DNA of 64,000 bases. Origin: Pseudogymnoascus verrucosus (taxonomy: Eukaryota). Made by a program: the position numbers and the translations under genes. The stretch lies in the NCBI GenBank assembly GCA_001662655.1, contig KV460227.1, one strand, 5' to 3'. Shown here piece after piece: positions 31,505-54,162 of the stretch. Below the pieces are notes generated by a model. That model had not been told where the DNA came from. It searched no databases and saw only the letters and a program-made list of their open reading frames with translations. Numbering within the stretch: the stretch's first letter is position 1; every line of letters begins with the position of its first letter.

Positions 31505-33534
31505 TCAGTAGAGGTTTGTGTACTGGGCCTTGATCATGTCGGCGGCCTAGATGCAGAATTAGTCAATCTGACAATAGTTGACGTTTTGGTCTGTTGAACT
31601 CACCTTCTCAGCAATCATATACACCGAGTTCTGAGGACGGCAGTCGGGGATGATTGGGATGACGGAAGCGTCAACGACACGGAGATTCCTGATGCCGTGA
31701 ACACGGAGCTGGGGATCTACCACACCCTGTTGGATGTTCTTGGACAGCCGGGTGGTGCCACAGGGGTCTGAATGGTATCCTTTGTCAGATCTAGCATCTA
31801 TAAAAAGGGGTCGGATTAGGACTTACGGAATCCAGTCTGTGATCTTTCCAATACGACCCTGTTCATGGCTTCGTCGGATTGGATGGGCATCTCCCAGGGA
31901 TAGTCTCCGACCACGATATCCTTAATGCCGTCACCCTTTGTAAGCACATCATATGTCCAGCGGACACCCTCGCGCATGGCTAGGATATCTAGGTCGTTAC
32001 CGAAGAAATTGAGGTTGATGAAGGGCTGTTCGAGCGCATCCGCCGAGTTCAACTTGACTTCTCCCGTGGATAGGGGGCGGAGCAGGTCCACAATTACCGT
32101 TAGGCTGCTGCCACTAGGAGGTGTAGGGTAATGCCACTGGAACGCCGAGGAGAACATGGGAACAAAATCCAATTCGAAGTGCGGCTGGCCACCAGGACCG
32201 AATGGATCAAGGCCTCCGTTGGCCTTCTTGGCATCCCTATATGCGGGGTACTTGTTCAGTCGCTCATCAATGCGTGGGAAACCGACCATCTCAAGTAGGG
32301 CGCTGCTTAGTGGGCCCGTCTTGTTGCGTCGGTAGGCCTCCACGGACCCATCACGGGCCTGGCCAGCGCGGAGGAGGTGGTCGTCAAGGCCATAGCCATC
32401 CTTCAAACGCAGAACGAAGGGCACGATGGGATGATCGAGCAGATTCTGTCCTACATGAGGGCTGTCCACCATGACATGGATGTTGTGCTTCTTGAGCTCA
32501 GCAGCAGGGCCGATACCAGAGAGCATCAGGAGCTTGGGGCTCTCGAAGACGCCTTGGGAGACGATGACTTCGTACTTAGCATTCAGAGTGATCTCGTCTC
32601 CTGTCTCGGGGTTGATCACGACGACGCCAGTGCAGACCTTAGTGGTGGGGTCGATGATGAGCTTTTTGGATTGGACCGACGCGAGGACAGTGACATTTGG
32701 CTTGCCCTTCAGGAAAAGAAAGCTTCCTTGACGGGTGCCGTTGTAGATGGTATCCATGCAGTGGGTCAGGCCAGCCATGGTACCGGAATAGATGTCCTCG
32801 GTGAGGGCATGTCCCTTGCTGGTCCAACCTTTGGTAAGGGCGTCACGGAATGGTTGCATCTCAGGCAGTAGGTGGGCATGAGAGATTTGAAGGGGTCCGC
32901 CAGTCCCAACTTTCGACAGATCGCTCGGGTAGAGCTTCTCATCGTCATGGTAAGTCGCGCACTAGATAATGCTGATTAGATGGAAATCTTAGGACATATT
33001 GTTGAAAGACCTCACTTTTCTGAGATATGCGACGCAGTTATCCCACGTCCAGTCCGCGCCACCATACTCTTCCCAGTCATCAAACGTTGCCTTGCTGCCG
33101 GGAATCCAGGTAAAGTAGTTAGCACAGCTGCTTCCTCCTAATACCTTGCCGCGGGTATTTGGTTTCTCAACACGTTCGTAATCATCGCGCTTGATCATGG
33201 TTGTCTTGTAAGCCCAATCATATTTGCTGCCTCTGAGATCAAAGGCCTTTGCGGGGGTGGTAATATCATCGATCTCCTCTGGATTGCTACATGCCGAACA
33301 TTGTCAGCATAATTAGAGAGGGATTGCTCCTCCGAAGCCTACTCACCTAACACCAGCTTCTATGACCAACACTTGCACCTTTGGGTTCTCTGCCAGGCGA
33401 CCAGCAACGGCGTTTCCTGCCGTTCCACCTTCTTGATGTTAGAGAGTACAGGATGGAGGAACAATTGGGGTAGTAAGCTTACCGCCAACGACGATGAAAT
33501 CAAAGCCCTGGTTGTCTGCAATTCTTTCGCCCAT
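31505..33534 (-). CDS. GMC flavoprotein, probable formate oxidase
   Basis: Exons 33534-33483, 33428-33347, 33286-33016, 32961-31827, 31767-31604, 31546-31505. DFIVVGGGTAG; RDDYERVEKPNTRGKVLGGSS; QTGFHPCG (His); IIPDCRPQNSVY (Arg in place of the usual His/Asn). Matches my recollection of Aspergillus oryzae formate oxidase. Confidence 0.85.
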
Positions 33535-33914
33535 GATGGTAATGTTATGGGTCGACCTAACGAAACTGGTATGAGAACAGTAGTATCTTAGAACAAACTT
33601 GATATATCAGCGGTAGATCTAGGTGCCTGATGTATTGTGGTGATAAAACTGCTGAAGAGGGGTCGGTGATGGGATATATATATTCAGCGCTCTACAAGCA
33701 ACTGACGCTACAAGCAACTGACGGAGAGAGAGCTTGGGCACATATTCACGCGTACACTTAATCCATCCATATTCGTACTTGGTAATTCATAGCATGTCCG
33801 GAAGGAGATTCCGGAGGCATACAAAGTGGCAAAGCCTTGGTTGATTTGTATGTATGCCCCGAATCACCACAAGATCTAGGCCCGCCACGGGAACGGCACA
33901 ACAATAAGACGCGC

Positions 33915-33958
33915 TAGTCAGCGCTTCGGAAAAGCGGTATATTCCAAGGCGCTGACTA
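33915..33958. promoter_or_regulatory. 17-bp imperfect inverted repeat in the oxidase/catalase divergent promoter
   Basis: TAGTCAGCGCTTCGGAA-N10-TTCCAAGGCGCTGACTA, two mismatches. Regulatory role inferred only. Confidence 0.4.
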
Positions 33959-34529
33959 TCTTGTCTGACTATGCCGTTTTAATATGGCCGTTGCAGTATA
34001 ACAAGATTAATAGGGCTAATGACGACTTGTTTACGGGTATTATGGACCCCAGACGCCAGAGCCGAGCTCCTCCCGCACGAGAAAGTGGGTCTCGCGCGAG
34101 AGATAGCTTTTACATCCGCGTTGCTCGATGGTGGCGCTACGAAGGTCAAGCACTTTTGGTAAGATTTAACTAACGCGGCTAGTGTCGCTGGATCGGATGT
34201 GCTAGTAGTAGTGGCAGGGGCGAACATCCACTTTTGAAACTAGCTATCATCAAGTTTACACCCACTGTCATCATATTTCATACTAGTAACTAACTATGCT
34301 GAGTAACTATCACTCATGTTCCTACGTATTCTCCATTTACGCATTTGCTTGGATGCGTTCCAGACTTTGGACAATGACTGGCTGCTCACAGTAGGAACTA
34401 ACATGAGACATTGTATAAATACCTGGCTGATAGCAGCAACCCTCATCCTACTTCTCCCAATTTATTCTTCTCTCCTCTAACAACTATCTCGTCGCTCGTC
34501 CTCCCAAACCCTGTTACAACTTTTTAGCC

Positions 34530-36523
34530 ATGGCTCATTCTCAGAACCCCCCCGTATTTACGCTGGCCGAAGGTGAGTTTGTTTAATAGATCTGGTCTCT
34601 AATACTCGCATACTTACAGCAAGAACCATAGGCCAGCCGATTGCCGACCCGTCAAACAGCACTGTTCTGCCAGCCCGATTTGGAGGTGGCAGCTTAGCGC
34701 TGCTCCAGGATACTCTCCTCATAGAAACTTTGGCGCACTTCAACCGCGAACGCATTCCAGAACGGTAAGCAAACAAAAAACCACCGGTCCTTGAGCCTAA
34801 GAATAACGTGTATCGGATAGTGTGGTCCACGCCCGAGCTGCAGCTGCCTGGGGCGAGTTTGAAGTTACCCATGACATCTCTCATTTGACAACCGCCAAAT
34901 TTCTTAATGGCATTGGCAAGAAGACTAAGGTCCTTCAACGCATCAGTACAGTCGGCGGCGCTACAGGTTCGGCCGAGACAGTCAGAGATGTTCGGGGGTT
35001 TTCAGTAAAGTTCTTTACTGAGGAAGGGAATCACGATATCGTCGGCAATGACATCGTACGTGAAATAAAACAAATTGCGATTAGGTCTCAAGTTGCTAAT
35101 GGTGACACCTACTACAGCCGGTTTTTTTTGTCAGAGATCCTGTCAAGTTCCCCTCCCTCAACCGGAGTCATAAGAAGAATCCAAGAAGCAATACCGCGGA
35201 TGAGACAATGGTAAAATTCCTCACCAACTAGATCGATATAATTAGAATACGCGCTGACCCGTACGCATTTTTAGTTTTGGGAGTAAGATATTCGCATCTT
35301 GACATGACCACACAAGCTAACATTGCAGTTTCCATGTCAACAATCAAGAGGGCGTGCACGCTCTCATGCATCTCTTCGGCTCACGGGGAATCCCCGCGTC
35401 GCTCCGAAACATCAATGGCTTTGGTGTTCACACCTATAAGCTCGTTGCGGTAGATGGGAGCTTCAAATACTGCAAGTTCCATTTCAAGCCTATTGGAGGC
35501 GTTCAGAATATGAGCCCTGAGGACGCTGCCAAGAATGCGGGTGAAAATGCCGATTATCACACTGCAGATCTGTTCAATGCTATTGAAAATGGCTACTATC
35601 CAGTTTGGACCCTTTATGTACAGGTCATGGAGCCTAAGGTTGCGGAGACGTACCCTGTGAATATCTTTGATATCACAAAGACCTGGCCTCACAAGGATTT
35701 CCCACTACTCCCTGTCGGAAATATGACCCTGAACAAAAATGTGAGTTGGCTATCGTCTGTATGTTTGCGGCCAATTAGATTGACTGGATATCTCAGCCAC
35801 ACAATTACTTCGAAGACGTCGAACAGGCTGCCTTCTCGCCGTCTAATATGGTTCCTGGAATCGCCGTCACTCCCGATCCTAGTGAGTATTATCCCTTGAG
35901 GTCAAATATCAACTCTAACAATCCGGGTAGTGCTTCAAGCACGCATGTTTGCCTACCCCGACGCTCAACGTTACCGTCTCGGCGTAAACTACCAACAACT
36001 GGCTAGCAACCGAGCCCTCTCACGTGTATACACGCCATACGAGCGTGACGGCGCCGCATCCTTCAACGGCAACTATGGTGGCGAACCCAACTACGTTCGT
36101 AGTGACTTTACCGTCGCCAATCCAGGCCAAAAGAGCATCGAACACGATGAGTGGGCTGGTGGAAAGGTAGGAATCCATGAAATACCAGTCTCAGATGCAG
36201 ATTTTGCACAGGCCACTGAATTATGGAATATCTTTGGCACGCAGCCTGGAGAGCAGGAGGGTTTTGTTAAGAACGTGGCGGGTGCTATACAGGATATTCC
36301 AAAGAAGTTGCAAGAGGGCACCATTGGTACGTTTTTCCCACCCGTCCACTTTCCAGTTCGTTGCCATGTCGCTCTGTGCTGACCATTGAATACAGCAATG
36401 TTCTCTAAGGTTCACCCTGATATTGGTAGAAAGCTCCAGGCAGAACTTAACAGTGCTGGGAAAATTAGCGCTTCTGCACAGAGCCAAGAAAGCGCCAGAA
36501 GTTATCAGGTAAAATACGTATAA
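34530..36523 (+). CDS. Monofunctional small-subunit heme catalase
   Basis: [17 protein letters not shown] (distal His), [41 protein letters not shown] (proximal Tyr); many introns including an 8-nt exon. Confidence 0.93.
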
Positions 36524-36879
36524 ATGAGGGGCTTATCCCCTCGTAGAGGATAAGCGAAGAGAAAACTGTTATGGGGACAAACGGTAGCACTCGCTCAAAT
36601 TGCAATGAATAGTCTATATAGCTCCAATTTATCATGCTTCGTCACATATTATATACTGGTATACTCTAAGTACTAGCACCCGTTCTTAGATTTTAATTTT
36701 TATACTCAACTCGAGGATTAGGTTTGTCATTAGAATACGAACTCGCAAAAACACTATGCGAAGTGGTGGTAGTCCTTGCTTGACCAAGGGCTTCCTATGA
36801 GTATTAAGGATATGATAGCAAATTTATGGATGATGATTTGCTGCAAGAACGGAAATACGTAGACGACTATAGTTATCAA

Positions 36880-37550
36880 GGATGCATAGGTCTATAATTA
36901 CCATATACAGCGATCGCGTTTCTCTACTTCCATTTGGTCCATTTCCACACTTACTCCATATGGAATCCAGATGGTATAAATTTTGGAGGCCTGGTCTCGT
37001 GCAGATATCGAGAGGAATATTGCCAGACCCACCAACTAGTTGTAGCCTACCCCTCGTAGAAAGTTTACTGGCCACTGCACGTTGACCCGTGACTCAGCTT
37101 GTTCGACTGCAAAGCTCTCGAGTTCATCTGTAGATAAAGTATCAAACTACCAACAAAGAAAGCCCGCAACGAATAGAGCGTCAGCCATATTCATGATATA
37201 AGACGAGACTAAATTTCGCGCAAGTTCACGCAAACTGGCCTTGCGTAGGCACGTGGTCAACACTACTACGAACAAGTTGGCGGTGGATAGCTTCCTCTTC
37301 AAAATTGTGATAATGACGAAGCCCGTAGGAAAGGTAAAGCTCGATACCAGAGTTGCGATTGAAGGGTTATTCACGCGTAGAGAGGTCGCCCCGCCGTCAA
37401 CTAAAATGCCGAAAAGAGTCCCAAGGGAAAAAATGCACCGGCGAGAAATGATTTGGGAAGTAAGTCGGCCCAAGATTAACGACCCGTTGCTGTACTAGTG
37501 TGGATGAGCATGGCGACAGTTTCTTTCGTGGGGTTGAAGGTTTTGTCCAT
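36880..37550 (-). pseudogene. Formate/nitrite transporter (FNT) pseudogene; 3' limit approximate
   Basis: KSFLAGAF / SLG.LFGILV, FTFPTGF, KLSTANLF (cf. ELFTGN), SYIMNMA, FLRGVGYN*LVGLA (cf. GIGCNWLVCLA), SKIYTIWIP. Stops at about 37476, 37147 and 37037, plus a frameshift at the A-run near 37430. Confidence 0.8.
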
Positions 37551-38291
37551 TTTGGCTCGTCGAGGTAGATTGACAACGAATAATAATATTTCAGGGACAG
37601 CAAGTGCTATATGCCAAAGCTTTCCATGCCAGGCGAGTGGCAATATGTTGTGAAGGCACCAGAAGACACTGTCGTGTCGGACAAATAAAGGGTTATGCGC
37701 GGACATGGGTGTGGATACCCATTTTTAGTGCTGTGGTATAGCCTGGACTTCGGGCCTCCGTACCGCATTATCTCGTCCGAGAGTGGTTGGACCACATCTG
37801 CGATGATTGCTAGCGAATCGGTCAAATGCGCAGCATATGGTTTACTTCATGACGTAGCCTCTCAAAGATTTTATGAAAGGCGAACGGCGCTCATCTACTC
37901 GAAGTTTGTGGGACAGTATACTAATATCAATGACAGTTAATTTTCGATGTGCAAGTCTCGCAGGATAGAACCGGAATATTCGTGGCTGCGAGACCGCTTA
38001 CTCCAATAGGGATCGTCTCGGGCGAAAGGTGTGGACCTCGTACGAGATGTATCGCTTATCACATCGCGCGACTAATACTACGTGATTTCACATCTCGGTG
38101 GCAGCGTGAATTCTAGATTAACTAGACTCTGACAACGAAAACATTTCAAAATGGGGCTATGAGGCGAGATGAGGCAAGCTGAGGCAAGCACCGAATTTTC
38201 TCGGCTTGTCTAATATCTGTATATATCCATTCCGAGCGTATCATTTTTGTAAATCTTTTTTTCTGATTATTTGTGAGGAAAATAGTAAATC

Positions 38292-39779
38292 ATGTCTCAT
38301 AGAAGCGAAAATGGGATCCATTCGGATATTTTCTTTGACGTTCAGCCGCGATGGTCTAAGATTACCACATCCTCAGGTGCCTCTTTGCCTGCTCCGACTG
38401 TCTTTACAGGACGTCCACTAAGAGGAACTCTGGTTATCTCTCACGACAAAAGGCAGGAGGAGGTCTTCGATGTTGTACAGCTCACCCTTCAAGGTATTGG
38501 GCATGAAATTGCGTATATTGGCCCTGAAAGGCTAATAATAAATTTTTAGGAGAAGTGCAGAGTATTATTAGACTATCAAGCGGTTCTTACTGCAAAATCA
38601 AGAAGCCTGTGAGTAGTATTTATTCTGATTGACTAAGACAGAAGCACTGACTAGAAAAACAAAAGCTGATTCTCATGTCATCCGTCAAAGTGGCAAATGA
38701 ATTCGAACAAATTGATGCTGAAGATCCTCATACGGTGACATATCAGACCGAGTTTTTCTTCGATATTCCTGACTTTACGACATTGCCATCGTCACATGGA
38801 AACAACACACCAAAGAGGTTACCACCTTCGATGCGTGTCGTCAAATCTAATTTTATATCTGCTGCCACTGCAGAAATCCACAACAGCGGCTCAATCGCAG
38901 GTACCTGTGATGTTACATACAAAATCGCGGCTTGCGTCTTCGCAGGTGGACGACTAAAAAGCGACGCGAGTCGAGAAATTATATTAATGCCAATCGAAGA
39001 TAAACCGCCCCCGCTAGAGCCCGAAGATTTCGGGAAGGAATATCGACTTGTTGGTGCAACTTCCTTGAGGCCGTCCTGGGGATTAAGAAAAAGTTTGATG
39101 GTCGTCGTATCGTCTATGGAGCCTCGGCCTTTAACATTTTCCAACCGCGAAGAAGGCTGCGAGAGTACCGAGGTGCTGCTCCACCTCAAAACCGAGGGAT
39201 TATCGGACGGAAGTAGTGAAAGAGCCTTCGTAGAGTCTCACCTGACTGACTGCGAGGTTCAGATAAATCTAGAAGCAGTGACATATTTTTCAGCGGAAGA
39301 GCAAAAGGCAGTTATGTCAATGGCAGAGGCACTGCGATCTCCGTCGGTTGTGTTGAAGAAGACAAAGTACGCAACAAATAGGAAAAAATTGCGCCTCGAG
39401 AGATGGATGAAAGGACGTGAGATAGCACGTAAGTCTACATTTTCTCTTACCAATTTTTTCAAGGGCCACACGTGCGGCTCGAAATTTTATACCTAGCTAA
39501 CTTGATACAGCTGGGATTTTCGAATGGGAAACAACAGTCTCGGTGACTACCATCCTCCCTACGAGTTTTTCTCGCCTTCCTTCATTCTTCACCAGCTTAG
39601 TAGCGAGAAGATATGCGTTTGATGTACAGATAACGTTTGGACATTGGTCTGGCATTAATGTCTTTCATAAGCCGATAAAACTTCGGATTCCACTGCAGAT
39701 AGTGCATTTTACAGCTGGAAAGTTCCTAGGTCACTCTCTAGAAGATGATGATCTAGACGCTCCGGTATATGTATCATAA
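38292..39779 (+). CDS. Arrestin/Bul1-like domain protein
   Basis: LRGTLVI..VQLTLQG, FFFDIP..RLPPSM, VTYKIAA, PSFFTSLVARRYAFDVQI; three GT-AG introns. Confidence 0.62.
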
Positions 39780-39963
39780 AGAGAGATTAGAGCCTTTTTT
39801 TATTGCAAAACGACCTCAGACAAGAAAACGCTGCTTACCTTTTACCCATTCTAAGTGTTGCGTCTCTCATCACACCCCCAGTTAGTGAAAACAATAGAAG
39901 CATTAATAACACAAATATTCTTAATAATGTAAACCTTAAATCTCGAGTTAACTATACTCTGAT

Positions 39964-42632
39964 CAGTGTTCGGCACGGATACCAAAATACCCGTGGTATC
40001 CGGGTATATCCTCGAGTAATTACCTACCCGGCGATATTTTAGGAGTATCCGGCGTATCCGGATACTCTCGAGTAGTATCCGGATACATGCCAAGAATAGC
40101 CAAGAATAGCCAAGACCTCTTTTTTCCAACGTCGTGAGACCTGTAGTAATGCTGTATAAAGTGATAATTATCCTCAGAATGAGCGACTCGTCGTTATCAG
40201 ATATACCGACAGAGCTTGAGGGCTATGATAGCTATGATACTCATAATGAGCCAAGTCTGCTGACGCTGCCGCCCCCTATTCATATTTAACAGGATTTTAA
40301 TCCTACACCGCTCCGACTTCAGCCTCTAGGACAAATGCTGCCACCGACGTCGTCAATACTATTTACAAAGCTATTGTATTCGCGATTGATACTTGATAGC
40401 CACCCACCTACAGTTAAAGTAACTTGCTTGCAACCAGACTGCGGATATTCACCTACTCCGCAGCCACTAAGTCAGACATCAACTGGTAATCTTTGGAAGC
40501 ACTATACCCTAAAGCATCCAACAGTAGCATATACAATGAAAGGTCCTACAATTACGCCGTCAAGCCCATCAAGTAGTGCATCGTCGTTTTTTGAGCCACG
40601 GCTGCGGAACCCGCAAGTCCAGCCTGCTCAAGCTCAAGCATCAAATCGTAGAGCAAAATACCGAGAGTTATTACTCTCATTTGTTGTATCGAATAACCTC
40701 TCCTTACGACTTATTGAGAGCTATTCGTTCCATCAATTAGTACACTTCTTAAGCCTAAGTACTCTGTCGATATCGTCACGAACGCTACACCGAGAGCTAC
40801 AGCGGCAATTCTCATATCACCGAGGATTGCTACAATTAGAACTCCAGTCTCATATTACCTGTGGCGGCCGGATATCTATTACAACAGATGCATGGACTGC
40901 GCGGAACTATACTGAGTACGCTGCTGTCACAGGTCATTGGATTAATGAGAAGTGGCAGCACCAGTGCGTATTACTTGATGTAATCCACCTTTAAGAGCCA
41001 ATTCATAGCGGTGAATATCTTGCTCAAGAGTTAGCTACAGTAACAGATAGCTTTGAAATTACAGGTGCTATCTTTACTTGTACGCGGGATAATGCCTCGG
41101 CGAATACTGTGATGCTTTCGGAATATGAGAAAATAGCTAGTAAGCAGCAGACGACTATTCAACAGCCATGGACGTTTACTGTAAAGGAAGGGGACGTTCG
41201 GTGTATTGCTCATATTATCAATCTTGCAGTTCAAGCTGCTCTAAAGAGCTTGAAAGCCAGCCCGGATACAGAAACAGAAGCGTACTGGTGTGAGCAAGGG
41301 CTTGCCTAGATTCCGCAGCGTATTAATAACGCTTCTACTAAAGTATCAGCTACGCTTGAGAAGCTCCGAAGGCATATTTATGTCTTTCGAAACCGAAGAG
41401 CATGGAAGGATGCTTTACAGAAGCAGATAAAAGCTGCAGGCTAGAAGCCACGCCGGTTATCACTTGATATGCCTATACGCTGGAATTCAACGTACTATAT
41501 GCTTGAAACAGCTATAAAGCTTCGAATACCAATTACTGCGGTATGCTCTACGCAGAAGCTTGATATTAGTATGAAGGATATTGCGTTAACAAGTAACGAT
41601 TGGGCTATTATTAAAGCTCTTAAACGATTATTCTTAGTATTCTTAAAGCCGTCAAGACGGCTACAAAGCGATTCATATCCAACGCTTAACTTTACTATTC
41701 CTCTTTACTTAAAGATGATAAATAAGATCACATCGCTATAAGAAGAGCTTAGTAGAAGCTCTGCAATCGGGGTAGCTTGTGGAGCTGCGCTTCAAAAGCT
41801 TAATGAGTATTATACTCTTACAACGAATCAGCAGTGTAAGCACTCAGCTGTTGCTACAATTTGCGACCCACGAATGAATCATACAGTATTTAAGAAGATA
41901 TATCTAAATGCTATAGACGATACACGAAGATTACGAGCAAGAGCGCAGTTTGAAGACGTTTGTAGAACGTACTAAAAGCGAGAGTATCACCTTGATACAG
42001 AGCGAATTACTCACGAAACAGCTCTTGCAGAAGCAATAGGTGCTACTGCCACAATAGATCAAGAACCCGATTCCGACGAAGATCTATTTGCGTCAGAAGG
42101 CTTAGCTTTTCAAGAGCCAGAATGGAGGCGCTAGATGCTTGAACCACGGCCTGGTGAGCATACTGATATTCTCAAATATTGGTGCGCAAAGCAATACCAA
42201 TATCTAGTTATTGCCCGTATTGCTCGAGATCATCTAGCAATTCCAGCGACCTCTGCAGCTTCTGAGCGGGTATTTAGTAATGGAAGTGATATTATCACAA
42301 AGAAGCGGAACAGGTTGTCACCGCCTACTATTAGATATTTACTGTGCTTACGGAATTGGGGTAAAATACAGGAGGCTGATAGCGATGGTGATGATGCTGA
42401 CGATGAAGCACCTGAATAGGGGCTTACGGAAAAGGGGGGGGTCTTGCGGAAAGGGGTTTACTATTATCAAAAGCTTCATTTTTTTTTATATACGCTATTC
42501 CTATTTTTATATACGATATTCAGCCTCATGTATCCGGATACTTACCTACCCTACCCGTCAGATCGTCGCCGGGTATATACCCTACCCGTGAGGTTCACGG
42601 ATACTACCCGGATACGTATCCGCCGAACACTG
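39964..42632 (+). mobile_element. hAT-superfamily DNA transposon, full length (2669 bp)
   Basis: TIR CAGTGTTCGGC (39964-39974) / GCCGAACACTG (42622-42632); 8-bp TSD ACTCTGAT at 39956-39963 and 42633-42640; subterminal GGATAC/GTATCC/TACCCG repeats. Confidence 0.96.
40179..42419 (+). pseudogene. hAT transposase inactivated by nonsense mutations
   Basis: Single frame with BED-like finger (C..C..STGNLWKH..H), TTDAWT, RDNASAN, CIAH, RWNSTY, PATSAASERVFS; seven in-frame TAA/TAG stops. Confidence 0.93.
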
Positions 42633-42916: not shown

Positions 42917-44362
42917 TTATCCCTTGGAAACTGGGGAGACAGCCTCACGATCTGTATGTGCACCGGTGAGTCTTTTCTTGCTGACGACTCGCAAACCACC
43001 AAACAATAAAACCAGCGTAGCCAATCCTAGAAGAACAGCTAGAGTTACCATCGCGCCAATGACACCCGCTGTAGCCTTGCTAATTCCTCCACTGTTAGAT
43101 CTAGCCGCGGACGAGTTGGAAGAGTCAGTCGAAGTGGAGGTGGCAGCACATGCACCCGTAGTATCACCGCAAGCTGAGCACCAAGAGGCTTTGTCACTGA
43201 TCGCAAACTTATTCATGCTGCTGACGAACGTATTCCACGGGAGAGAAGTAGCCGATTGGCCGAAGAGCGGGTACTCAGTCAACGGATTGTACGCCGCCGA
43301 GCCGTTGGTGAACAAGAATCTAACCGAGATCTGGTCTGTGGATGGGTACGACGACTCTGTAACGGTGGCGCTTGTCACGAGCTCGAATACCATAGCGGAG
43401 GCATAGTCAACAATGCCGGTGAAGTCATCCGACACACTGGGGAGCTGAGCGAGGCCGAAGAAGGAGAGGAATGAATTGTAGGCACCAAACTGGACAGCGA
43501 GGCTCGACGCTGACTTGCTAGTGATGGTGGCGTTGAGCTGTTGGACAATCTCGGCCGCAAGCGTAGAGCCAGCTATAGCACGAACGGGTTCGCTGCTGTT
43601 GTAGGCGAGGTTAAACTCATGCTGATTTGCGCGAGTCTGGAGTTGGTGGAGGACGTTATCAGTCAAGAGATCCCCAGATGGGATGGTCGAGTTGTGGATC
43701 TCGGAGACGTGAATATAATCGTAGATCGCGTAGGCGTTTTTATAAGTTACGTCAGAACTGCTAAATGTGGTTTTCACAACTGGGAGTAGGGACGCGTAGA
43801 AGTCCTTTGTGGAGGCGAGAGTGCTGGTGTAGTCATCTGAGATGAAGTAGCTGTTGGAACTGGTTATAGCATTATTGCAGCCAGAAGAGCCCTGGAGCCA
43901 TGTAGTGTCCTCAGGGTTGGCGCTACTGCTACGCGCAGAGGAGACGGTGTTCACAGGAATCAACTGGTAGCCGTTCATCGGGGCAGAGACAGAGGTGCCG
44001 TTGGCGAGCATCTGCGTGGCGACGGAGGTCCCCACGGGAGGATAGAGACCCTGGAGCCATCCTTGGGCAGAATTTTGGAGGACTGTGTCTACTGGAGCCT
44101 GGACGGTGAGCTGGGAGAGCTTGACGACATTCTGACTGATGCCGTAGATTTTGTTTCTGGAGGAGTCCTCAAGGTAACGGGCTCTGTAGAACGCACCCGC
44201 GCCGTAGATCTGCGCGTATCCGAGATCAGTGAGGCCAGCCGGAGGGAACTCTTTAGGGGTACGGTCGCCATGGCGATGGACGATATACGCGCCGAGAACA
44301 GTTTCCTGGGCTTGGACAACGAGAGAGAGAAGGGAAATGAGCAAGAGCTGGGTGGTCACCAT
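42917..44362 (-). CDS. Histidine acid phosphatase, secreted with C-terminal TM anchor
   Basis: Signal peptide, RHGDRTP motif, C-terminal hydrophobic helix; intronless. Confidence 0.9.
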   Translation of the reverse strand: MVTTQLLLISLLSLVVQAQETVLGAYIVHRHGDRTPKEFPPAGLTDLGYAQIYGAGAFYRARYLEDSSRNKIYGISQNVVKLSQLTVQAPVDTVLQNSAQGWLQGLYPPVGTSVATQMLANGTSVSAPMNGYQLIPVNTVSSARSSSANPEDTTWLQGSSGCNNAITSSNSYFISDDYTSTLASTKDFYASLLPVVKTTFSSSDVTYKNAYAIYDYIHVSEIHNSTIPSGDLLTDNVLHQLQTRANQHEFNLAYNSSEPVRAIAGSTLAAEIVQQLNATITSKSASSLAVQFGAYNSFLSFFGLAQLPSVSDDFTGIVDYASAMVFELVTSATVTESSYPSTDQISVRFLFTNGSAAYNPLTEYPLFGQSATSLPWNTFVSSMNKFAISDKASWCSACGDTTGACAATSTSTDSSNSSAARSNSGGISKATAGVIGAMVTLAVLLGLATLVLLFGGLRVVSKKRLTGAHTDREAVSPVSKG

Positions 44363-45494
44363 ATTAGCAAATGGCTGAATTCAACGCTCGGATGCAGAAG
44401 TGAGACTTTCTTATCGCAAGAGAGACAGTGGTGAGGGGCGGGGATGGGATGGGGAGAAAGATATACTTTGGAACCCACTGGAGGAAGGGGGATAGTTTGG
44501 GAATTTTTCCCAGTTCCATGCGATGCAACCCATGTCGACGGCTGGGACTGTTGCCGCGGGCACTATTTGGCAGCTGATCAACTAAGTGCTCATACAGTTA
44601 CGCATGCATGAGAAGACCATAGAGACCGTCCGGTCGCTCTATCCAGACCGACCTAAGTCGGCAATATCCCCCCTTTCAGGTGTAGTGCATATTGTCGTAA
44701 ATGGCGACAGGGATCCAGGCCACAAGCCATGCCAAGCTTGCACGAGTGGGGTAATCCCCACAACTAATAGATGTAACTCTATTTAAGTGTCTCGGGCGGG
44801 AAGTTGAAGATGAAACTGTAGAAAGATACCTAACTGTCTAATCATTGGCTACAGGGTATGATGCATCCTGTAGGAAGTAGAAAGTGAGGCGTGGGAAAGT
44901 TTTTGAGTTAGCGCAAGCTGACCAGTTGTATATCGCTTTTCTCAACATGACAACAAATCTTGACTACATCATCTCACTTCTTCATCCCGCGTTGACGTAA
45001 GATACAGCTCAACGTCATAACTATGGGATTGCGAAGGGTTAATACTCTGCGCGGCTACTAGCTGGTGATAAGTCAATTTAGTATCCATCCAAAATTACGG
45101 TTTCGGTTTTGGGTGAGACTTCTGGCCCGAGAGATCCCGCGAGACTAACGTTCAGCCCGTGCTTACTATGTGGAGACAAATAACCATGGTTGTGGACGGT
45201 TGGCACGGACGGCTGCCGCAGTTTGCAGTGAATAGCTGTCGAGGTGTATGGCATTATGGCACTATACCTAAATTAGGGGTGAAGGCCGCTGGTAGAGGGT
45301 GGGAGAAAATGTATTCCGTCTTCGTATGCATCCACGACCACTTACACAGGCGTGGGTTGTACATGCAGTACGGAATATGTCTTGACTGCTGTTCAGGCCA
45401 GTGTCTGCTTTAATTATCCGTCGCCAGCCGTAGGTGACATTCGGTGTGCTCTTTGCCTGAAAAAGAGTATATTTATTCATTGTCTGCTAATGGA

Positions 45495-46808
45495 ATGGCC
45501 GAAACAATCCATGGGCGCGTAGCAAATGGAGCTGCACAGCTTCTTAGGAGATCGGAACTGGGCTTTACTCGGCAGTTACAAGGAACTCTGCTGAGATCAC
45601 CACGACCTCGTCATCATGCCACTGCGTCAATTGCCAGTCCGCGTGCGGCGAAACTGAGAGATGCGAAGCCCTTTTCCTCGTTTCTCACGGACAGCTTCAA
45701 TCGACAGCATACATATCTGCGCATCTCCATAACAGAGAGATGTAATCTTCGCTGTCTCTACTGCATGCCGGAAGAGGGCGTCCCACTCTCGCCCCAACCT
45801 CACCTTCTCACAGCGCCTGAGATATCCTACATTTCGTCTGTTTTTGTGTCGCAAGGTGTCACAAAGATTCGACTCACTGGGGGTGAGCCTACGGTGCACC
45901 CCCAGATACTTCCTATGCTTCACGAAATCGGCCGTTTACGATCGTGCGGGCTCAAAGAGCTTTGCTTGACCACCAACGGGTTAACGCTTTCTCGAAAGCT
46001 AGATAGTATGGTTGACGCGGGCGTTACCGGCATAAACCTAAGTCTCGATACCCTCGACCCGGTCCAGTTTGAGCAAATGACCCGACGAAAAGGGTTCTCT
46101 GCAGTGATGAAATCCATCGATCACATCCTCGCTCTTAAGCGCTCTGGTGGAGCGAACAACTTAAAACTCAAGATCAACGTCGTGATTATGCGTGGTATGA
46201 ACGATCTCCAGCTCCTTCCCTTCGTGGAGATGACGCGTGAAAAGGACTTAGAGGTTAGATTTATCGAGTACATGCCTTTCAGCGGGAATAAATGGTCTGA
46301 GCAAAAGATGTTGGGCTACCAGGAGATGTTAGCCACAATACGAGAGCGATATCCTCAGGTTGAGCGAGTACAGGATCATCCAAATGATACCAGTAAGACC
46401 TTCAAAATTCCAGGCTTCGAAGGCCGTATTGGATTTATCACAAGCATGACAGACCATTTCTGTGGAACATGTAATAGACTACGTATCACATCCGATGGAA
46501 ATTTGAAGGTCTGCCTTTTTGGAAATGCGGAAGTAAGCTTGCGAGACATTCTCAGGAATGACCTGAATAACGGAGAGCCCATTGATGAAGAGGCGTGGGA
46601 AGGTATCAAGCAGCTTGAAATGGATGGAAGAGAAGGGCGCCTCACAGCTGGAGCTAGACCAGGCGGACGGCAGGCTTACCTTCGAGAGAACAAGCAACGT
46701 CTCTTGGACGTTATCGGAATGGCCGTGCACAGGAAGAAAGCTAGACACGCAGGTATTGGTCAGCTTGAGCACATGGATAACAGGCCTATGATTCTGATTG
46801 GGGGATGA
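45495..46808 (+). CDS. moaA: Molybdenum cofactor biosynthesis GTP 3',8-cyclase (MoaA/MOCS1A-type), stand-alone
   Basis: YLRISITERCNLRCLYC (radical SAM), RLTGGEP, FCGTCNRLR..DGNLKVC, C-terminal MILIGG*; intronless. Confidence 0.95.
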   Translation: MAETIHGRVANGAAQLLRRSELGFTRQLQGTLLRSPRPRHHATASIASPRAAKLRDAKPFSSFLTDSFNRQHTYLRISITERCNLRCLYCMPEEGVPLSPQPHLLTAPEISYISSVFVSQGVTKIRLTGGEPTVHPQILPMLHEIGRLRSCGLKELCLTTNGLTLSRKLDSMVDAGVTGINLSLDTLDPVQFEQMTRRKGFSAVMKSIDHILALKRSGGANNLKLKINVVIMRGMNDLQLLPFVEMTREKDLEVRFIEYMPFSGNKWSEQKMLGYQEMLATIRERYPQVERVQDHPNDTSKTFKIPGFEGRIGFITSMTDHFCGTCNRLRITSDGNLKVCLFGNAEVSLRDILRNDLNNGEPIDEEAWEGIKQLEMDGREGRLTAGARPGGRQAYLRENKQRLLDVIGMAVHRKKARHAGIGQLEHMDNRPMILIGG

Positions 46809-46978
46809 AGCTTAGGTAGAAGCATGCACAGTGGTACCGTATATTTTGTCAACTGTGGATTTAACACTTATCTTACGTTCATGGATATGTTTGCTTATCT
46901 TATTGAATGAAATGGAATTACTATATAAACCAATCATGCGAGAACACTTCGAACTCCACTAGCTTTTTCGGATACGAG

Positions 46979-48721
46979 TCAGTCATCTACATCTCGAGGT
47001 TCGTTTTCCCTCCAATACTTCTTGTAGTCCTCTAAACTCTGGGTCGGAAACTCCTCTGGCCAAGTGAGAGGGGCTAGAGGAGAACCCGTCTCCTCGAATT
47101 TGGCTAGTCGCTGCTTCGTTAGAGCCCGACTCTCGTTGACGCTGTAGACACTAATCCTGTGCGCCGAGCTTGTTACGTGAAGACCCCAATTCCATGCGGC
47201 GCGAATATTCAAAGGCTGCGTGTTAAGAGAATTATCCCAGCACCTGCAGACAATCTCTACCCAACCTTCGACATCGCAAGGAAGGTCGAACTCCCAAGTG
47301 CGCCATGTCCACTTGTGCTTCGCGGAGAGATTTTCGTTAGGAACAGCATACCAGCTAAATCCCCCATCAGCTGAAAGTTCCACCCTCTCAGGCCATCTCC
47401 CTCCTCCAGAATAGGCCCAACCCTTGCAGCGGATCTTGCCGTTATGGATAACAACCTGCTTCGTCCATGGAGACATGATGGCCGAACTAACAGGCATCTC
47501 TTGAATCTGGATTCCGTCGGTCGGTCGTTGATTGTGCTTACCAACCTGCTGGTTGAAGTACAGATACTCCTTGCTCTGGACTGGGGCAATAGTTGGGTTC
47601 TTAATCGCTTTAATGCGATAAAGCCACTTCACGCTTCGAGCACCAATGTAACCCAGGACGACAACTCTTAAGGGGTATCCATGGATCTTTGGCAGAGGCT
47701 CTCCATTCATCTCCCAAGCGAGGATGACCTCGTTTGCCTTGACTTTAGACCAAGGGACACTGACGAGGTAGTTCATAACTTCGTCACTCTTGAAATAGGT
47801 CTCTGCGCCGTAGAGTTCAAGGTGTTTCCCGCCCTTGATGAGCCCGCCACAATCCTTGATCACCTTCTTCAAGCTGATACCAACATACTTGGCCGTACCG
47901 ATAGCACCTTCGGCCCATGGAGCCTGCGGAACCTCGTCTCCCTGGCCCGGGTACAGGCTAATCTGCTCTATGCGGCGCGTTCCGGAGCACTGAATGGTGA
48001 CAAGCTTCTCCATTCGCGGAAATTTGGATTCGTCCATGAGATCATCCAAGGTGTAGGATTTGGGATTAGCAACCAGCCCATCGAGTGTAAGACTCCACTT
48101 GTCTTTCTCGATGAGCGGTATTCCGCCGTGATTTCGAACAAAGTGAAGCGGATTCGGGGTGATAGCTTTCGAGGTCACAAGTCGTTTAGGAGGCTCGCCG
48201 TTGTAGGGAAATTGAAGCAGATGCAGCATCTCAGGGTGTTTTTCGCGGAGAACCGTTTTCCAGGAATCCTCAGGAACGTCGGTAAGTTCGCCTCCAATGG
48301 CATGGTGCCACATCTTCCAATGGGTGCCGGGCAGCACGGGGTTTGTGTTTGGAATTGGCCCCATTTGGAACTCTGCGTTTGGGGGAAAGGTCTGAGACTT
48401 GAGTATCTTGTGTGCCTTTGCCTTCTTCTCCGGATATTTCTCCCATTCCACGTAGCTGCTCGAATGTCAGTCCTGCTGCAAGAAACTACTGCATATGATG
48501 GTGCATATGAGAACGTACCCTTTCCAGCCTTCGAGCTCTCGGCGGAACAGCTTGTTAGGGTCGCCAACGGCTTTGATGGCAGCTTCATCTTTTGTAGCTC
48601 CCTCCCATTGGTGCGGGGGGATGGCAATTATTTCATTCCCTGTCTGGTCTAAGAAGGGCAGCTTGGCCCCAGCCAGGCCTTGCTCGATTTTCCATTCATC
48701 TGGGCGGTTGACTGTCTCCAT
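46979..48721 (-). CDS. Sulfite-oxidase-family molybdoenzyme without a cytochrome b5 domain
   Basis: FVRNHGG, TIQCSGTRR (Mo-ligand Cys), HGYPLRVVV.GYIGARSVKWL, GWAYSGGGR..RVELSADGG; intron 48518-48456. Confidence 0.9.
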
Positions 48722-49390
48722 ATTGTTCTTTGCATAGGAAAGGATAACGAGTCCTACGATATGGTGCGGGGGTGCTTCCAAGCCTTATAGCGTCCATTTC
48801 CTAAGCTCCTAAGCCATCGGCAGGTAGAAGTCACCAGAGGCGCCAGATAGTGATGTAATCTTAGTTTGGCCGGAATCATTCGACGTTGACATCACCAGTC
48901 GGTGGCTTGCATACCAAGGTTGCGGTCTGTCATATTAGTGTGTTTCACTCCCGAGTATGGAAATAAACCTGTGCCTAGAACTAAAAGCGGAAGGCGGAGT
49001 AATACCTCTGCTGTGTCGCAAGTTTTACGGATGCAGCGCCATCTCTCGCACGAGAAAATGGGGTAAAATCACGGTACATGGCACACTATGACAGAATACA
49101 AATGAGAAATTTCTCAGTACCTGTAGCTAATTAGTAAGGATATTTCTTACCATGTAGGAAATATTTTCAAGGAGTGCGCATATCCTGCCCATGTTAGCCA
49201 CAAGAGTTTCTAGATAGATCGCACTGTGATTCGAAATAGTAGTCTTAACACAGTAAAGTTAGGTACAGCTCCATAAATTGGACAGTTAAACTAACAGTAG
49301 TACCTAACGCACACGGCATTTTGCGCTTGTTAAGTCCGCAAAAAGCTTCTTTCCACAGGCGATGTCGTCATAGATCGGAAGATGGCTTCT

Positions 49391-49419
49391 CCTATTGGTC
49401 CGTGTTACAGACCAATAGG
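49391..49419. promoter_or_regulatory. Perfect 10-bp inverted repeat carrying two opposed CCAAT boxes
   Basis: CCTATTGGTC-N9-GACCAATAGG between the divergent Mo-enzyme and TF genes. Confidence 0.45.
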
Positions 49420-49523
49420 CGCGCGCCATTGCAAACTTTAGTACCACTTGTACTGTACAAACAAGTCAGAGCTGCAACTGTCAACATCGTTCACTTTTGA
49501 CCGACTCTAGTCTTCACAAAGAG

Positions 49524-52052
49524 ATGGCATCGGCATCCCGTGCTCCTAAATTTTCGAGTATTCGTCGTTCGAGGCCGTCGTACAGTTGTAAAAGCTGCCG
49601 GGAGAGAAGAGTCAAATGCGATCACGTATATACATTCCTTGCTCCCCGTATCATCTATTGCCACACTTTTTGCTGACACAACATCATGCCTAGACTCATC
49701 CAAAATGCGCCAATTGCAACCGGAACGATTTAGAATGTATCTACGAGGGGGCGGACCTAAAGCGCAAAGACCCTCCAAGAGATGCAGCGGAGAGTGAATC
49801 TCCCGTAAAGGTAATGCGACATAGGTCTCTGGTTGAAGATCCTCAATCCAACCAGGGATACTTGATAATGCAGAATGGTGGTCGCTCGCGGTATGTTGAA
49901 AATACTTTTTGGGCATCAGTGGACATGGAGGTGAATAATCCCTGTGTTGCTGTCATCAGATACTGCTAGCTAAACTCACATTGTTTCAGGGCCTAGAGCT
50001 GGACTCTCTTCTTTTCGATCTCCCGCTATTCCCACTTGAAGATGCCTGTTGTGCCGACCAAGACACGGGCAGTTGTGGCTCGCACACTTCATGTCGGCAT
50101 TACACTGGCACAACCGAACCTAATTTTTCCTTCTGGTCTTCTCGCCCGGCCGTTATGAGAGCAAGTAACAAGGGCATCATGGACATCCTGTCAGAATTAC
50201 CACCTCAGGACACTTGCGACCAGATGTATAAAAATTTCGTGGAAACAGTGCACCCTCTTATTCCGCTTCTGCATCTGCCCACATTCGATAAACTGTATCG
50301 CCGGTTTTGGGATTGGCACAAGACTTGGGCCATCAGTGATTTTCCACAAGGGGTTTTGGCAGAAAACCCGAGTTTCCTGCCGATGCTCCTCGCAGTACTG
50401 TTTACAGGTTCCCTTTCCCATACAGGGTCGCCAAACATTTACATGCCTCTTGACGGTCAGAAAAAGTTGTTTGCGACGATCCCAGTCGCCTTGGCTATGG
50501 TTGGATTTCCGCATAGACCATCTCTATACTCATTGATGGCATTCGTTCTCCTAAATTCAATGTTGATTCGAGAAGAGGAATCTCTAAGCTCGTGCTCTTT
50601 CGTTGCCGTCGCGTTTCGAGTGTGCCAGGCCATGGGCATTCACAAAGACGGCACGGACTTTGGTCTCGATGAGATACAAACCGAGGAGAGAAGAAGAGTA
50701 TGGTGCCATCTGATGCATTTGGATGTCATGACGAGCATTCTATCTGGACTGCCTCTGATTGCGTCGAGCGAGATGTTCAGCGACACGCGCATGATCGGAG
50801 AGTTACGAGATGAGTATATCGGCAAGGTGCAATTGACGGAAGATATGGATGGTAGTCCGATTATTGACCCGAACTATATTGTCACTGCTGGGCGCTATGA
50901 CTCCACTTCTTGCATGCGAAACATCCTCCTCTGGCAGTTCTCACATAAGCCGGTAACCCTTGACAGTGTCAAAAATATGGAAGAGAGTATCGAGTGGTTG
51001 CAGATCCGAACAAAAACACGCGTCAAACGGCTCAGGCTGCATCCTCTGGAAGAATTAGGAAGTCCTTCGTCCCATTCATTCCAATCAACACCTCGTGGTG
51101 ATAACACCGAAGAATTATCCCCCCAGGCGCTTTGGGGAAAAGATTTGCTATGCCTAATGGTCGAGAAGGCTTACTGCCTTTTGTACCACCCAATAATGCA
51201 GCATTCGACTTTGTGGATAGAACTACGCACTAGGTAAGTAACGGACATAGATATTCTTCTAATTGTAACCCGGGAGCTGATAGTGTACAGGGCGATCCCT
51301 CGATTTCAATCCTTCCTATCAATTTTTATTAAGATGTGTACCACGGACAGCTACCTCCCATTCCAATGGCTCTACCCAGGCGCTTACCAGCCTCTCCAAT
51401 GTGTTGCTGTTCTGTTAATTGACCTGCTGAAGGCCCCTGTGTCTGAAGAAGCCGCAAAGTCTCGGAGTCTCCTCGAAAATATCTTCTCTCTTTTGGGCCC
51501 GGAAGGCCGAATTAGTAGTGGAACACTAAACGTTAGTTCTTGGCCCAATCAGAGGTATGCTTCAGCCGGAGCTAAGCAGGCCTGGATGAGACTCGAAAAG
51601 TTGAGATCAAAGGTCTGGCAGAAGTTGGGACTAGACCATAGTGTGCTTTGGGCGAGGACGATCGGAAAGACTTCTCAACAGTCATATAGTACTGATACAG
51701 CTCAAGCTGGGAGCTCTATGGGTCAAACCACAGCACAACAGCCCTTACCTCCTAATCAAAATGATTTTTTCTATTCTAATTTTCTCTTTTCTAGCGAGCA
51801 GCAGAAGTGAGTTTTCCGCCACTTAGGTACTCTCTATTAAGAAGCTGACATAGAAATAGAAATAGTATTCCGTCGACCGAATTTGGAGCTGCCAATTTTG
51901 ATGGTTTAGACCAGCAGAATTTATTGCAAGACCAAACTGCCATCGATAGCCTGCCTGAACAAGACTTAGAATCCTCGTGGCAAACTTCCACATTCCAAGG
52001 TAGCTTATCTGGTACTATACCGCCATTCGATAATATAAATTATCTAGGCTAG
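49524..52052 (+). CDS. Zn(II)2Cys6 transcription factor with fungal-specific TF domain
   Basis: CKSCRERRVKCDH|THPKCANCNRNDLECIY (cluster split by an intron), VHPLIPLLHLPTF, AMGIHKDG..EERRRVWCHL. Confidence 0.9.
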
Positions 52053-52501
52053 TCATTGCATTCAGCAAGGACACGAATAAAACACAGGTCATACCTTCGC
52101 GAGATATTTGCAAATTGGGGCTCAACCTAAATTCAAAGCATCTTCTGAGGCTGGGCTATGGGAGGTAAATTACATCTAGGTTAGGAATAGGTACTATACT
52201 ATCCTGTCAGCCTCGCCCGTCTTACCCGTAGCCTTCGCACTCCTGCTCTCCTTAGGTTTCCTCTGCCATATGCTGTCCAGATACCGTATGTTAACACGTG
52301 TGTTGCTTTTTGCGACCCAGGACGCCTCATTTCTAGTCGGATCCTCGTGAGCCTTCGGCTCGGCAAGCCTTGCCCTACATGACACTCATCCTCGGCATCT
52401 AACAGGCTCACCATGTCTGACAAGTCAATAGTTTCTTTTCCTTTACTTCCCTTAGTATTTAACTTATAATAGGTCAAAGGAGCAGTTATGTAGCCAACAT
52501 G

Positions 52502-52640
52502 NNNNNNNNNNNNNNNNNNNNNNNNNNNNNNNNNNNNNNNNNNNNNNNNNNNNNNNNNNNNNNNNNNNNNNNNNNNNNNNNNNNNNNNNNNNNNNNNNNN
52601 NNNNNNNNNNNNNNNNNNNNNNNNNNNNNNNNNNNNNNNN
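52502..52640. other. Assembly gap (N run) followed by a 14-nt A tract
   Basis: Ns in the sequence; A14 at 52641-52654. Confidence 0.99.
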
Positions 52641-53065
52641 AAAAAAAAAAAAAATAGCCTTGGGCCTCGTCTCTTGCATACTGGATGATTTCTGATCATT
52701 ATGATGTAGATTACTTATCGACGTCATCCCTTCAAAAAAGCCGAGACCAGATCAACTGTCAAAGGATTACTAATCTTTTATTCTAGTAAAGCGTCTACCA
52801 TATCACAATATTCTATAGATTACCAAATCGATTGCCAGTCCATCCCGCATCAGTGGCCATGGAAATCTTGCTGAGACACAGGTGTTGTGACGAATGACGC
52901 GAATATACGACCCTATACTGTCTAGCACAATGATATCGGCCGATAGACTTATATGGAAGATTTATACAAAATGGTGGATTACCCATAATGGCTCTTCTGT
53001 ATAAATAACGAACCAACTCTCTTCCACAGTTAAATATTTACCAAAGATCATTATTCAGGATTACC

Positions 53066-54162
53066 ATGGGTGCTCCTCTTGTAACCGTTCTTGTAATCGG
53101 AGGCACAGGTGCGCAAGGCCAGCCTGTTGTAAAAGGTGCGTCATATATCAACACTAATAGATAGATCCTTTATTAATATTATTAGAACTCTCCGCAGATG
53201 GCCGCTACAAAATCACTGTATTGACGCGCAGTGCACAATCCGAACCCGCACAGGAGCTTGCATCGCTGCCAAACGTCACAATACTGGAAGGCGAAACCTT
53301 CGACGAGCAAACCCTCATGAAAGCATTCAAAGGCATCGATGCGACTTTTGTCAATACCAACGGATTTGCCATCGGCGAGAAAGCCGAGGTCTACTGGGGA
53401 ATCCGCATCTACGAGATTGCATACGGAGCAGGAGTCAAGCACTTCATCTGGGCCTCGCTGGCCTACTCCTCGAAGCTAGCGCACTTCAACCCCGACTTCC
53501 ACTGTGGGCATTTAGATGGGAAAGGGAAAGTGACAGATTATCTTACCTCGCAGCCTACAGACCATATGGCGTGGTCAGTCCTTCTTTCTGCTCCATATGT
53601 GGATACGCTCTCTCAGCTATTGAGACCAAAGCCTGATCCGAATGACCCAAGTCTGATGGTCTTTTCAGCGCCACTTGGCAACACTGCCATGCCTCTCATT
53701 GAACTGGGAGACCTCGGAAAATATGCCAAATGGATGTTCGATCATGTGAAGCGCAGCAACGGCATGACGCTTAAGATAAGCACAGAGCATATCCGCTGGG
53801 CAGACCTGGCGAAGGATTACACTGCTGTTACCGGACGTAAATCAATCTACAGAGACGTTACCCTCGACGAGTATTTTGCATCCGGAGCCTTCCCTGACCC
53901 AGAATTGAAGGTAGGACATAGTGTAACACACGACGATCCGACGCTGCAGACATACCGGGAGAATTTCTCGGCTTTCTGGAGACTGTGGAAGTCTGGCCTT
54001 GATACGAGGGATTATAAGATCATGGACGAGATTTTACCTGGAAGGATTCGCAGTGTCAAGGAGTGGATGGTAAAGACTGGGTATACAGGCGAGCCTGGAA
54101 GAGTCCTAAAGGACTATATTGACAGGGAAAGGAAGAAAACTGGATGGCCACTTCTTGGATAA
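53066..54162 (+). CDS. NmrA-like atypical SDR
   Basis: VLVIGGTGAQGQPVV, intron about 53136-53185, GVKHFIWASL, GHLDGKGKV. Confidence 0.9.

Follow-up and report, generated by a model that had tools for sequence, protein, structure and literature searches.

Two adjacent, probably oxygen-dependent oxidase modules with a possibly shared catalase in Pseudogymnoascus verrucosus

Organization of the locus

We analyzed a 64,000-nucleotide stretch of intron-rich fungal DNA from Pseudogymnoascus verrucosus (assembly GCA_001662655.1, contig KV460227.1; called the window below) that harbors genes for a formate oxidase (FOX), a catalase, a stand-alone MoaA protein, and a heme-less molybdenum (Mo) enzyme of the sulfite oxidase (SO) family. 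An original prediction, made from the sequence alone, had grouped these four genes with a formate/nitrite transporter (FNT) relic, a Zn2Cys6 transcription factor (TF), and an NmrA-like gene, and all seven were found where it had placed them. The order along the block is FOX (-), catalase (+), FNT relic (-), arrestin-like frames (+), hAT transposon, histidine phosphatase (-), MoaA (+), Mo enzyme (-), TF (+), assembly gap, and NmrA-like gene (+) (Table 1). We read this block as two modules, module A around FOX and module B around the Mo enzyme. An exon-by-exon spliced model was built for FOX only, and TF and NmrA were judged from long open frames only; the catalase and Mo enzyme genes were taken as intact because tblastn of annotated relatives covers both end to end.

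Table 1. Features of the block and their positions in the window
Feature	Position	Strand	Remarks
Formate oxidase (FOX), GMC flavoprotein	33534-31505	-	Six exons, 581 aa, no stops, no PTS1; module A
Monofunctional heme catalase, formate-oxidase-partner clade	34530-36523	+	~510 aa, no PTS1; module A, likely shared sink
FNT pseudogene	36900-37550	-	Pfam Form_Nir_trans, E 1e-16
Arrestin-like open frames	38292-39779	+	ESM-Atlas lead, 0.87-0.90
Defective hAT DNA transposon	39964-42632		2669 bp, 11-bp inverted ends, six internal stops
Histidine phosphatase (branch 2)	42917-44362	-	Hydrophobic stretches at N and C terminus
MoaA-only gene (GTP 3',8-cyclase, NIT-7A/MOCS1A-like)	45495-46808	+	437 aa, C-terminal GG; module B
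Heme-less sulfite-oxidase-family Mo enzyme	46979-48721	-	559 aa, one 63-nt intron; core of module B
Zn2Cys6 TF	49524-52050	+	3' end approximate; divergent from Mo enzyme across 802 bp
Assembly gap, TF/NmrA boundary	52502-52640		Run of 139 N
NmrA-like protein	53066-54162	+	Beyond the 139-N gap

The transposon and the phosphatase gene had been regarded as interrupting the region. The hAT element is flanked by an 8-bp target-site duplication (39956-39963 and 42633-42640). Contigs of 4 of the 23 listed sequencing runs were compared with positions 31450-51449 of the window; runs X3, X4, and X6 look genomic and represent three organisms, and X12 is probably RNA. At the hAT site, contigs of X3, X4, and X6 skip exactly 2,677 bases. 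The element is therefore a recent insertion, and its absence from the site in three relatives indicates that the block is contiguous in Pseudogymnoascus. In X3, a single contig of 25.9 kb covers FOX through TF, and the contiguous block was found in at least four Pseudogymnoascus organisms. Locus tags agree with this arrangement in strains F-4519 (FOX 06855, catalase 06856, MoaA 06858) and F-3775 (catalase 03596, MoaA 03592). A single 40.7-kb contig of strain WSF 3629 carries FOX 10038, catalase 10039, Mo enzyme 10044, catalase 10052, and FOX 10053; the two FOX-catalase pairs that flank the Mo enzyme there are identical (VE00_10038-10053), as a result of either local duplication or an assembly artifact.

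The FNT gene is not intact over the whole family profile, with in-frame stops at 37478, 37149, and 37038, a frameshift near 37455, and the 3' part missing. Relatives X3 and X4 have 442 extra bases at position 36961, and X6 has a different deletion. Thus, the channel gene is decaying. Repeat-induced point mutation indices of FNT and hAT showed no clear shift. The arrestin-like frames, for which no Pfam match was found, are retained in related Pseudogymnoascus. In two public models (P0314 and P0439), which are probably annotation errors, intergenic or FNT-antisense pieces connect the catalase with the arrestin-like gene.

The formate oxidase and its partner catalase

FOX matches the formate oxidase of Aspergillus oryzae (AoFOX) over its full length (E 1e-272, 909 bits; 239 bits for the next family), and its long exon is 100% identical to an annotated Pseudogymnoascus protein of equal length, 581 aa. 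The C-terminal residues H514 and R557, which we take to be the functional His/Arg pair of the family, are kept. R90 and S97 correspond to R87 and S94 of AoFOX, which are needed there for 8-formyl-FAD (PMC11236828). Formate oxidase activity is predicted from this conserved active site. In a quick tree, FOX falls in a Leotiomycete clade with a support of 100.

Synteny in fungi was judged from accession order, contig sizes, and 10-kb flanks. In the window, FOX and the catalase are arranged head to head with 995 bp between them. Their genes bear consecutive tags or accessions in seven Pseudogymnoascus assemblies, in Scytalidium (twice), and in A. karnatakaensis. Ten more records place the two on contigs of equal size, which is indirect evidence and weak for megabase contigs (A. 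granulosus, Monascus purpureus, P. variotii No. 5, P. maclennaniae, A. thermomutatus, A. coremiiformis, A. affinis, A. brunneoviolaceus, P. subrubescens, and one JGI contig). The contig sizes differ in A. wentii, A. sclerotiicarbonarius, A. ellipticus, Fusarium sp. DS 682, and Sporothrix eucalyptigena. In a quick tree built from 106 catalases, every FOX partner fell in one 41-row clade (SH-aLRT 100), whose first split separates Pseudogymnoascus and Scytalidium g414 from 490-aa forms and mirrors the split of FOX into 581-aa and 593-aa forms.

Targeting was called with the consensus pattern of the type 1 peroxisomal targeting signal (PTS1). The signal is present in 85 of the 94 FOX proteins of the 593-aa form and in none of the 11 of the window-type 581-aa form. 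Among the catalases of the partner clade, 27 of 41 have it, and the window-type catalase does not. The FOX-catalase pair is ancient and occurs widely; FOX and catalase have co-diverged, with PTS1 gained or absent jointly. In module A, FOX would convert formate and O2 to CO2 and H2O2, and the head-to-head catalase would remove the peroxide. Heme catalases can also oxidize formate peroxidatically.

On the other side of FOX, a gene for a secreted-type carboxylesterase (28721-30617) is convergent with it; the enzyme could release methanol or formate by cleaving esters, or the gene may be a chance neighbor. An ArAE/FUSC-type transporter gene (24936-28532) lies upstream of the esterase.

The heme-less molybdenum enzyme and its neighbors

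The Mo enzyme consists of Oxidored_molyb and Mo-co_dimer domains (Pfam). No cytochrome b5 domain match was found in it, and the b5 heme motif is absent from all 120 of its best relatives. Apart from the enzyme itself, these 120 share 73 to 90% identity with it across ascomycete classes. At E <= 1e-30, 2,950 relatives were retrieved, other SO-family proteins included, and all named top matches are from ascomycetes. A Mo enzyme from P. atrosanguineum is labeled "GMC oxidoreductase" and was not used as evidence. A first structure prediction from 81 close rows had a pLDDT of 71 and misplaced domains, and it was replaced by one from a deeper alignment (pLDDT 94.5), which has the SO fold (Z 44.7, root mean square deviation 1.9 A over 364 residues). 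An N-terminal extension of about 120 to 140 aa, of which about 120 residues are folded in the model, remained unmatched: nothing aligned to it in searches with the whole model, and Atlas matches were below threshold, the extension never having been folded alone. We therefore make no claim of a new fold.

The pocket residues R175, H177, C224, R229, W248, and Y365 are as in SO, with the Mo-binding C224 invariant. Of the features of nitrate reductase, the enzyme has neither the b5 plus FAD/NAD domains nor an Asn at the SO Tyr site, where three nitrate-reductase rows have Asn in place of Y365. The three-Arg anion pocket of eukaryotic SO is not complete: two Arg are kept, and the third, which we take to be R450 in chicken numbering, is replaced by G492. 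The motif at this third anion-binding site is WNWGLH in 118 of 120 relatives, and W491-G492-L493-H494 is invariant in the 81 aligned members. At the same position, Arg stands in all 16 aligned b5-type SOs and Lys in many of the short heme-less rows. No PTS1 was found in the clade (0/120).

The original prediction had likened the enzyme to plant-type SO. The comparison fits only the missing heme domain; as to descent, a quick 65-row tree (no named plant sequence included) placed the clade apart from the group of b5-type and short eukaryotic SOs and from nitrate reductases. Its nearest tree neighbors are unnamed heme-less proteins of 360 to 380 aa. In another quick tree, the window protein is sister to that of Hyaloscypha (support 90). 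Eukaryotic SUOX proteins devoid of b5 are mentioned as a group in PMC6400420, in the part consulted of which this clade is not described. The clade is an uncharacterized ascomycete subfamily and the notable new part of the locus.

To learn what travels with the Mo enzyme, we kept 80 loci from 575 metagenome matches, among which 25 belong to the Mo clade and reach 8 kb or more (about 22 of them independent). Pfam scans considered only frames of at least 130 to 150 aa, and loci L017, L031, and L032 were skipped. A catalase lies within 10 kb of the Mo enzyme in 5 of the 25 long loci (L001, L006, L027, L043, and L061), with a rough chance probability of 1e-8, and the two genes have consecutive accessions in Myriangium. 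These six catalases occupy four places in the tree, all outside the FOX-partner clade, which suggests repeated recruitment; no PTS1 was present at those of their ends that could be read. Another long locus, L046, has a DyP-type peroxidase gene (6155-7249) head to head with that of the Mo enzyme. A MoaA ending in GG occurs in two of the 25 (L001 and L006), and a related TF also in two (L001, E 5e-45; L043, weak). The same histidine phosphatase (49 to 50% identity) stands at L005:6540-7991 and L006:3693-5210, a recurrence that spans two classes; hence, the phosphatase gene is a recurrent neighbor rather than an interruption. Gene order and orientation are variable among these loci. With catalases near both halves of the block in other fungi and MoaA, phosphatase, and related TF recurring beside the Mo enzyme, the combination of O2-dependent oxidases, peroxide sink, and molybdenum cofactor (Moco) supply put forward originally is supported.

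No FOX, FNT, arrestin-like, or NmrA gene was detected in the 80 loci. For FOX this count is weak, as the window FOX is 13.4 kb from the Mo enzyme (10.8 kb without hAT) and thus outside a 10-kb flank, and it is further weakened by 55 of the 80 loci being shorter than 8 kb or not of the Mo clade. In a distant branch (60 to 63% identity), the Mo enzyme is found near acyl-CoA oxidase and subtilase genes (L042:91-1443, L030, L031, L032, and L052).

In the window, MoaA is letter-for-letter identical to a database protein and has the Fe-S motifs CX3CX2C and CX2CX13C as well as the terminal GG. Its gene is separated from the stop codon of the Mo enzyme by 170 bp, which leaves no room for MoaC. The phosphatase keeps its RHG motif, and the HD motif usual in the family was not seen. 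Pairs of CGG/CCG in the spacers yielded no common motif. Two Pseudogymnoascus strains have a TauD-type dioxygenase directly upstream of a close Mo-enzyme paralogue and annotated as fused to it; among solved structures, this dioxygenase is best matched by Escherichia coli taurine dioxygenase. Enzymes of the TauD family free sulfite from sulfonates. The annotated proteins (P0245 and P0254 from F-4514 and F-3557; 938 to 978 aa, TauD/Jlp1-type plus second Mo-enzyme copy) are either fusions or misjoined models.

Reaction with O2 is known for plant SO and for mammalian SO deprived of its heme (PMC10574614), and in Neurospora the MoaA-encoding transcript (NIT-7A) alone rises with Moco demand (PMC7232280). 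Together with the neighbors of the Mo enzyme, these precedents make a sulfite:O2 oxidase with a peroxide sink and a Moco booster the likeliest candidate for module B. The enzyme would most likely use O2 as the acceptor when it oxidizes sulfite to sulfate, releasing superoxide or H2O2; the MoaA-only gene would boost the first, limiting step in making Moco, and control of the module probably lies with the divergent TF.

Union of the two modules and comparison with known systems

Linkage of the two halves was also looked for in other genomes. We compared 14 non-Pseudogymnoascus species in which both proteins seemed to come from one assembly; the count was made by hand, with four mixed-assembly species excluded, and paralogues that were not seen could alter it. 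In A. udagawae, FOX and the Mo enzyme lie together on a short contig of 66,686 bp and, in a second record, on one of 2.08 Mb. They are apart, on different contigs or by 459 accessions, in the other 13: P. manginii, A. insuetus, A. germanicus, P. pancosmium, A. ibericus, P. lividum, A. homomorphus, Pu. lavendulum, A. affinis, A. fijiensis, P. nucicola, P. lagena, and H. variabilis. Linkage in A. germanicus had been considered on account of a distance of 13 accessions, and it was rejected as the contigs differ in size. Indirect cases are A. floccosus and A. ambiguus, in which six accessions separate the Mo enzyme from a FOX-clade catalase and FOX itself was not seen. The linkage within each module is conserved, and their union, found in Pseudogymnoascus and one of 14 other species plus the two indirect cases, recurs but is the exception, mostly a genus-level feature so far. 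The Mo enzyme and FOX trees, both quick, look vertical within Leotiomycetes, and recent horizontal transfer is unsupported; transfers may have occurred earlier. No DUF3435 captain, and hence no sign of a Starship, was present among the long frames scanned in the window.

We consider it somewhat better than even (probability of about 0.55) that the block consists of two O2-dependent detoxification oxidase modules that share a non-peroxisomal catalase. They would have evolved separately and been kept adjacent in Pseudogymnoascus, as we propose, because both release peroxide in the same compartment. As FOX, the catalase, and the Mo enzyme all lack PTS1, both oxidases could depend on a single catalase outside the peroxisome, and such sharing is plausible from the sequences of the window. 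Several points weigh against this. Absence of PTS1 is no proof of a cytosolic location, and the sulfite activity of the Mo clade is a prediction. The Gly that stands for Arg after WNx implies that the substrate may differ, and the phosphatase has no place in the mechanism. Of the 25 long Mo-enzyme loci, 19 have neither catalase nor DyP, and most of them lie among unrelated genes. Two Pseudogymnoascus assemblies (24MN13 and F-4518) have modules A and B on different short contigs. Finally, A. udagawae, A. floccosus, and A. ambiguus have PTS1-type FOX or catalase, whereas the Mo clade has no PTS1, so the same-compartment argument fails there and no general shared-sink rule follows.

Separation in 13 of the 14 other species is what would be expected if two real modules had been joined once, in an accessory-gene region of a Pseudogymnoascus ancestor, with nothing shared between them. 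The dead channel, the arrestin-like gene, and the transposon between the modules fit such a history, as do the five metagenome catalases that stand near a Mo enzyme with no FOX partner, and one co-occurrence within 67 kb would arise with a likelihood of about 8% over 40 comparisons. Nevertheless, two more meetings took place in another class (the catalase of A. floccosus and A. ambiguus and the FOX of A. udagawae), and module B of the window has no catalase of its own although its relatives repeatedly gain one. We regard chance neighborhood as unlikely.

The original prediction had favored a single unit acting on one substrate that yields formate plus an oxyanion. In a more specific form, a C1-sulfur compound (hydroxymethanesulfonate or methanesulfonate) would give formaldehyde or formate plus sulfite, to be finished by FOX and the Mo enzyme under one TF. 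The contiguity of the block in at least four organisms, the repeated meeting of A and B in Aspergillus, and the TauD-type enzyme abutting a close Mo-enzyme paralogue would fit. So would the probable RNA run X12, from a relative, which has a catalase contig with GT-AG joints as well as contigs on FOX, phosphatase, Mo enzyme, and TF; these indicate presence only, and the lack of cover on FNT, the arrestin-like frames, and most of MoaA is not a sign of silence. Presence in a shared library is not co-induction, however. The block has no C-S-cleaving, formaldehyde-oxidizing, or uptake gene, nor an enzyme that would generate formate plus an oxyanion; FNT is a pseudogene, the Mo-enzyme copy linked to TauD lies at a different locus, and A and B are unlinked in most genomes. 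A common pathway is thus improbable.

Least probable of all, and hardly to be expected, is that the Mo enzyme, with its remodeled pocket, has a role other than sulfite oxidation and transfers oxygen to or from another substrate (nitrite or NO, an S- or P-oxyanion from the phosphatase, or an organic N- or S-oxide, with FNT once a nitrite carrier): the glycine in all 81 aligned members where SO has Arg, the unexplained folded extension, and the recurrence of the phosphatase in two classes could be taken that way, but Y365, the best sequence and fold matches to sulfite oxidases, and the lack of a reductase or electron-input domain speak against it, and the TauD neighbor points to sulfite.

The Mo clade may represent an additional way of removing sulfite with O2, with a bearing on sulfite tolerance, the use of sulfonates, and the turnover of sulfur in soil. 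Independent recruitment of catalases, along with the matched gain or loss of PTS1 in FOX-catalase pairs, offers a testable case of clustering driven by a toxic by-product. A bolder generalization, which we hold to be improbable, is that heme-less Mo oxidases widespread in ascomycetes form a subfamily with an active site and an N-terminal domain of their own, make peroxide outside the peroxisome and so recruit catalases, a peroxidase, and a MoaA booster, and that their combination with FOX-catalase, here and in some aspergilli, would serve C1-sulfonate destruction, e.g., of the formaldehyde-bisulfite adduct. The mostly genus-level union limits the weight of this locus itself.

NmrA had been counted as a member of the unit, and its absence from the 80 Mo-enzyme loci leaves no evidence for membership in A or B. 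Downstream of it, short tandem repeats of 21, ~61, and ~111 bp with no protein family match (54840-55550) are possibly a decayed mobile element, and an MBOAT-type acyltransferase gene follows (56328-57649). A separate accessory group at 15363-24564 comprises a Zn2Cys6 TF, an amidohydrolase whose best solved matches are 2-pyrone-4,6-dicarboxylate hydrolases, a sugar transporter, small TF-like frames, and a short-chain dehydrogenase/reductase, and it resembles a unit for the catabolism of lactones or sugar acids.

In the titles and abstract openings searched, this gene set is undescribed, and no gene partner of formate oxidase is mentioned; supplements, e.g., Starship cargo tables, could hold it. 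A mobile formate-catabolism cluster mentioned in the original prediction was not found: the word "formate" is absent from the main texts of PMC9156397 and PMC11162782, and PMC11623301 deals with another gene set. The SO review PMC10574614 covers animal and plant SO, and the fungal passages seen in it concern other enzymes. The locus thus combines known enzyme families in a two-module arrangement for which no earlier description was found.

Each part has its closest known counterpart. The ssf cluster carried by a Starship (PMC11623301) is likewise a fungal C1 detoxification system, and its pathway ends in formate; it differs in that its Table 1 lists no gene in common with the block and its main text does not mention catalase, molybdenum, or sulfite. 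FOX shares with AoFOx (PDB 3Q9T, 5ZU2, and 5ZU3) its full length, the R87/S94 pair, and the C-terminal His and Arg, and differs in belonging to the 581-aa Leotiomycete clade. The best structural matches of the Mo enzyme are chicken SO (1SOX) and SorA/SorT (Z 44.7, 39.5, and 38.7); unlike these, it has neither a b5 domain nor a cytochrome partner gene nearby, and its neighbors are peroxide-removing enzymes. Arabidopsis SO (PDB 1OGP) resembles it in the SO fold devoid of a heme domain, the Mo-binding Cys and most pocket residues, and a functional link to catalase, whereas the Mo enzyme is only 33% identical to it, lacks PTS1, has an N-terminal extension and a Gly for the third Arg, and in the quick tree branches apart from the eukaryotic SO group. 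Like Neurospora nit-7 and Aspergillus cnxABC, the window MoaA is a radical-SAM protein with a terminal double glycine, but it represents the A part only, encoded beside its client enzyme.

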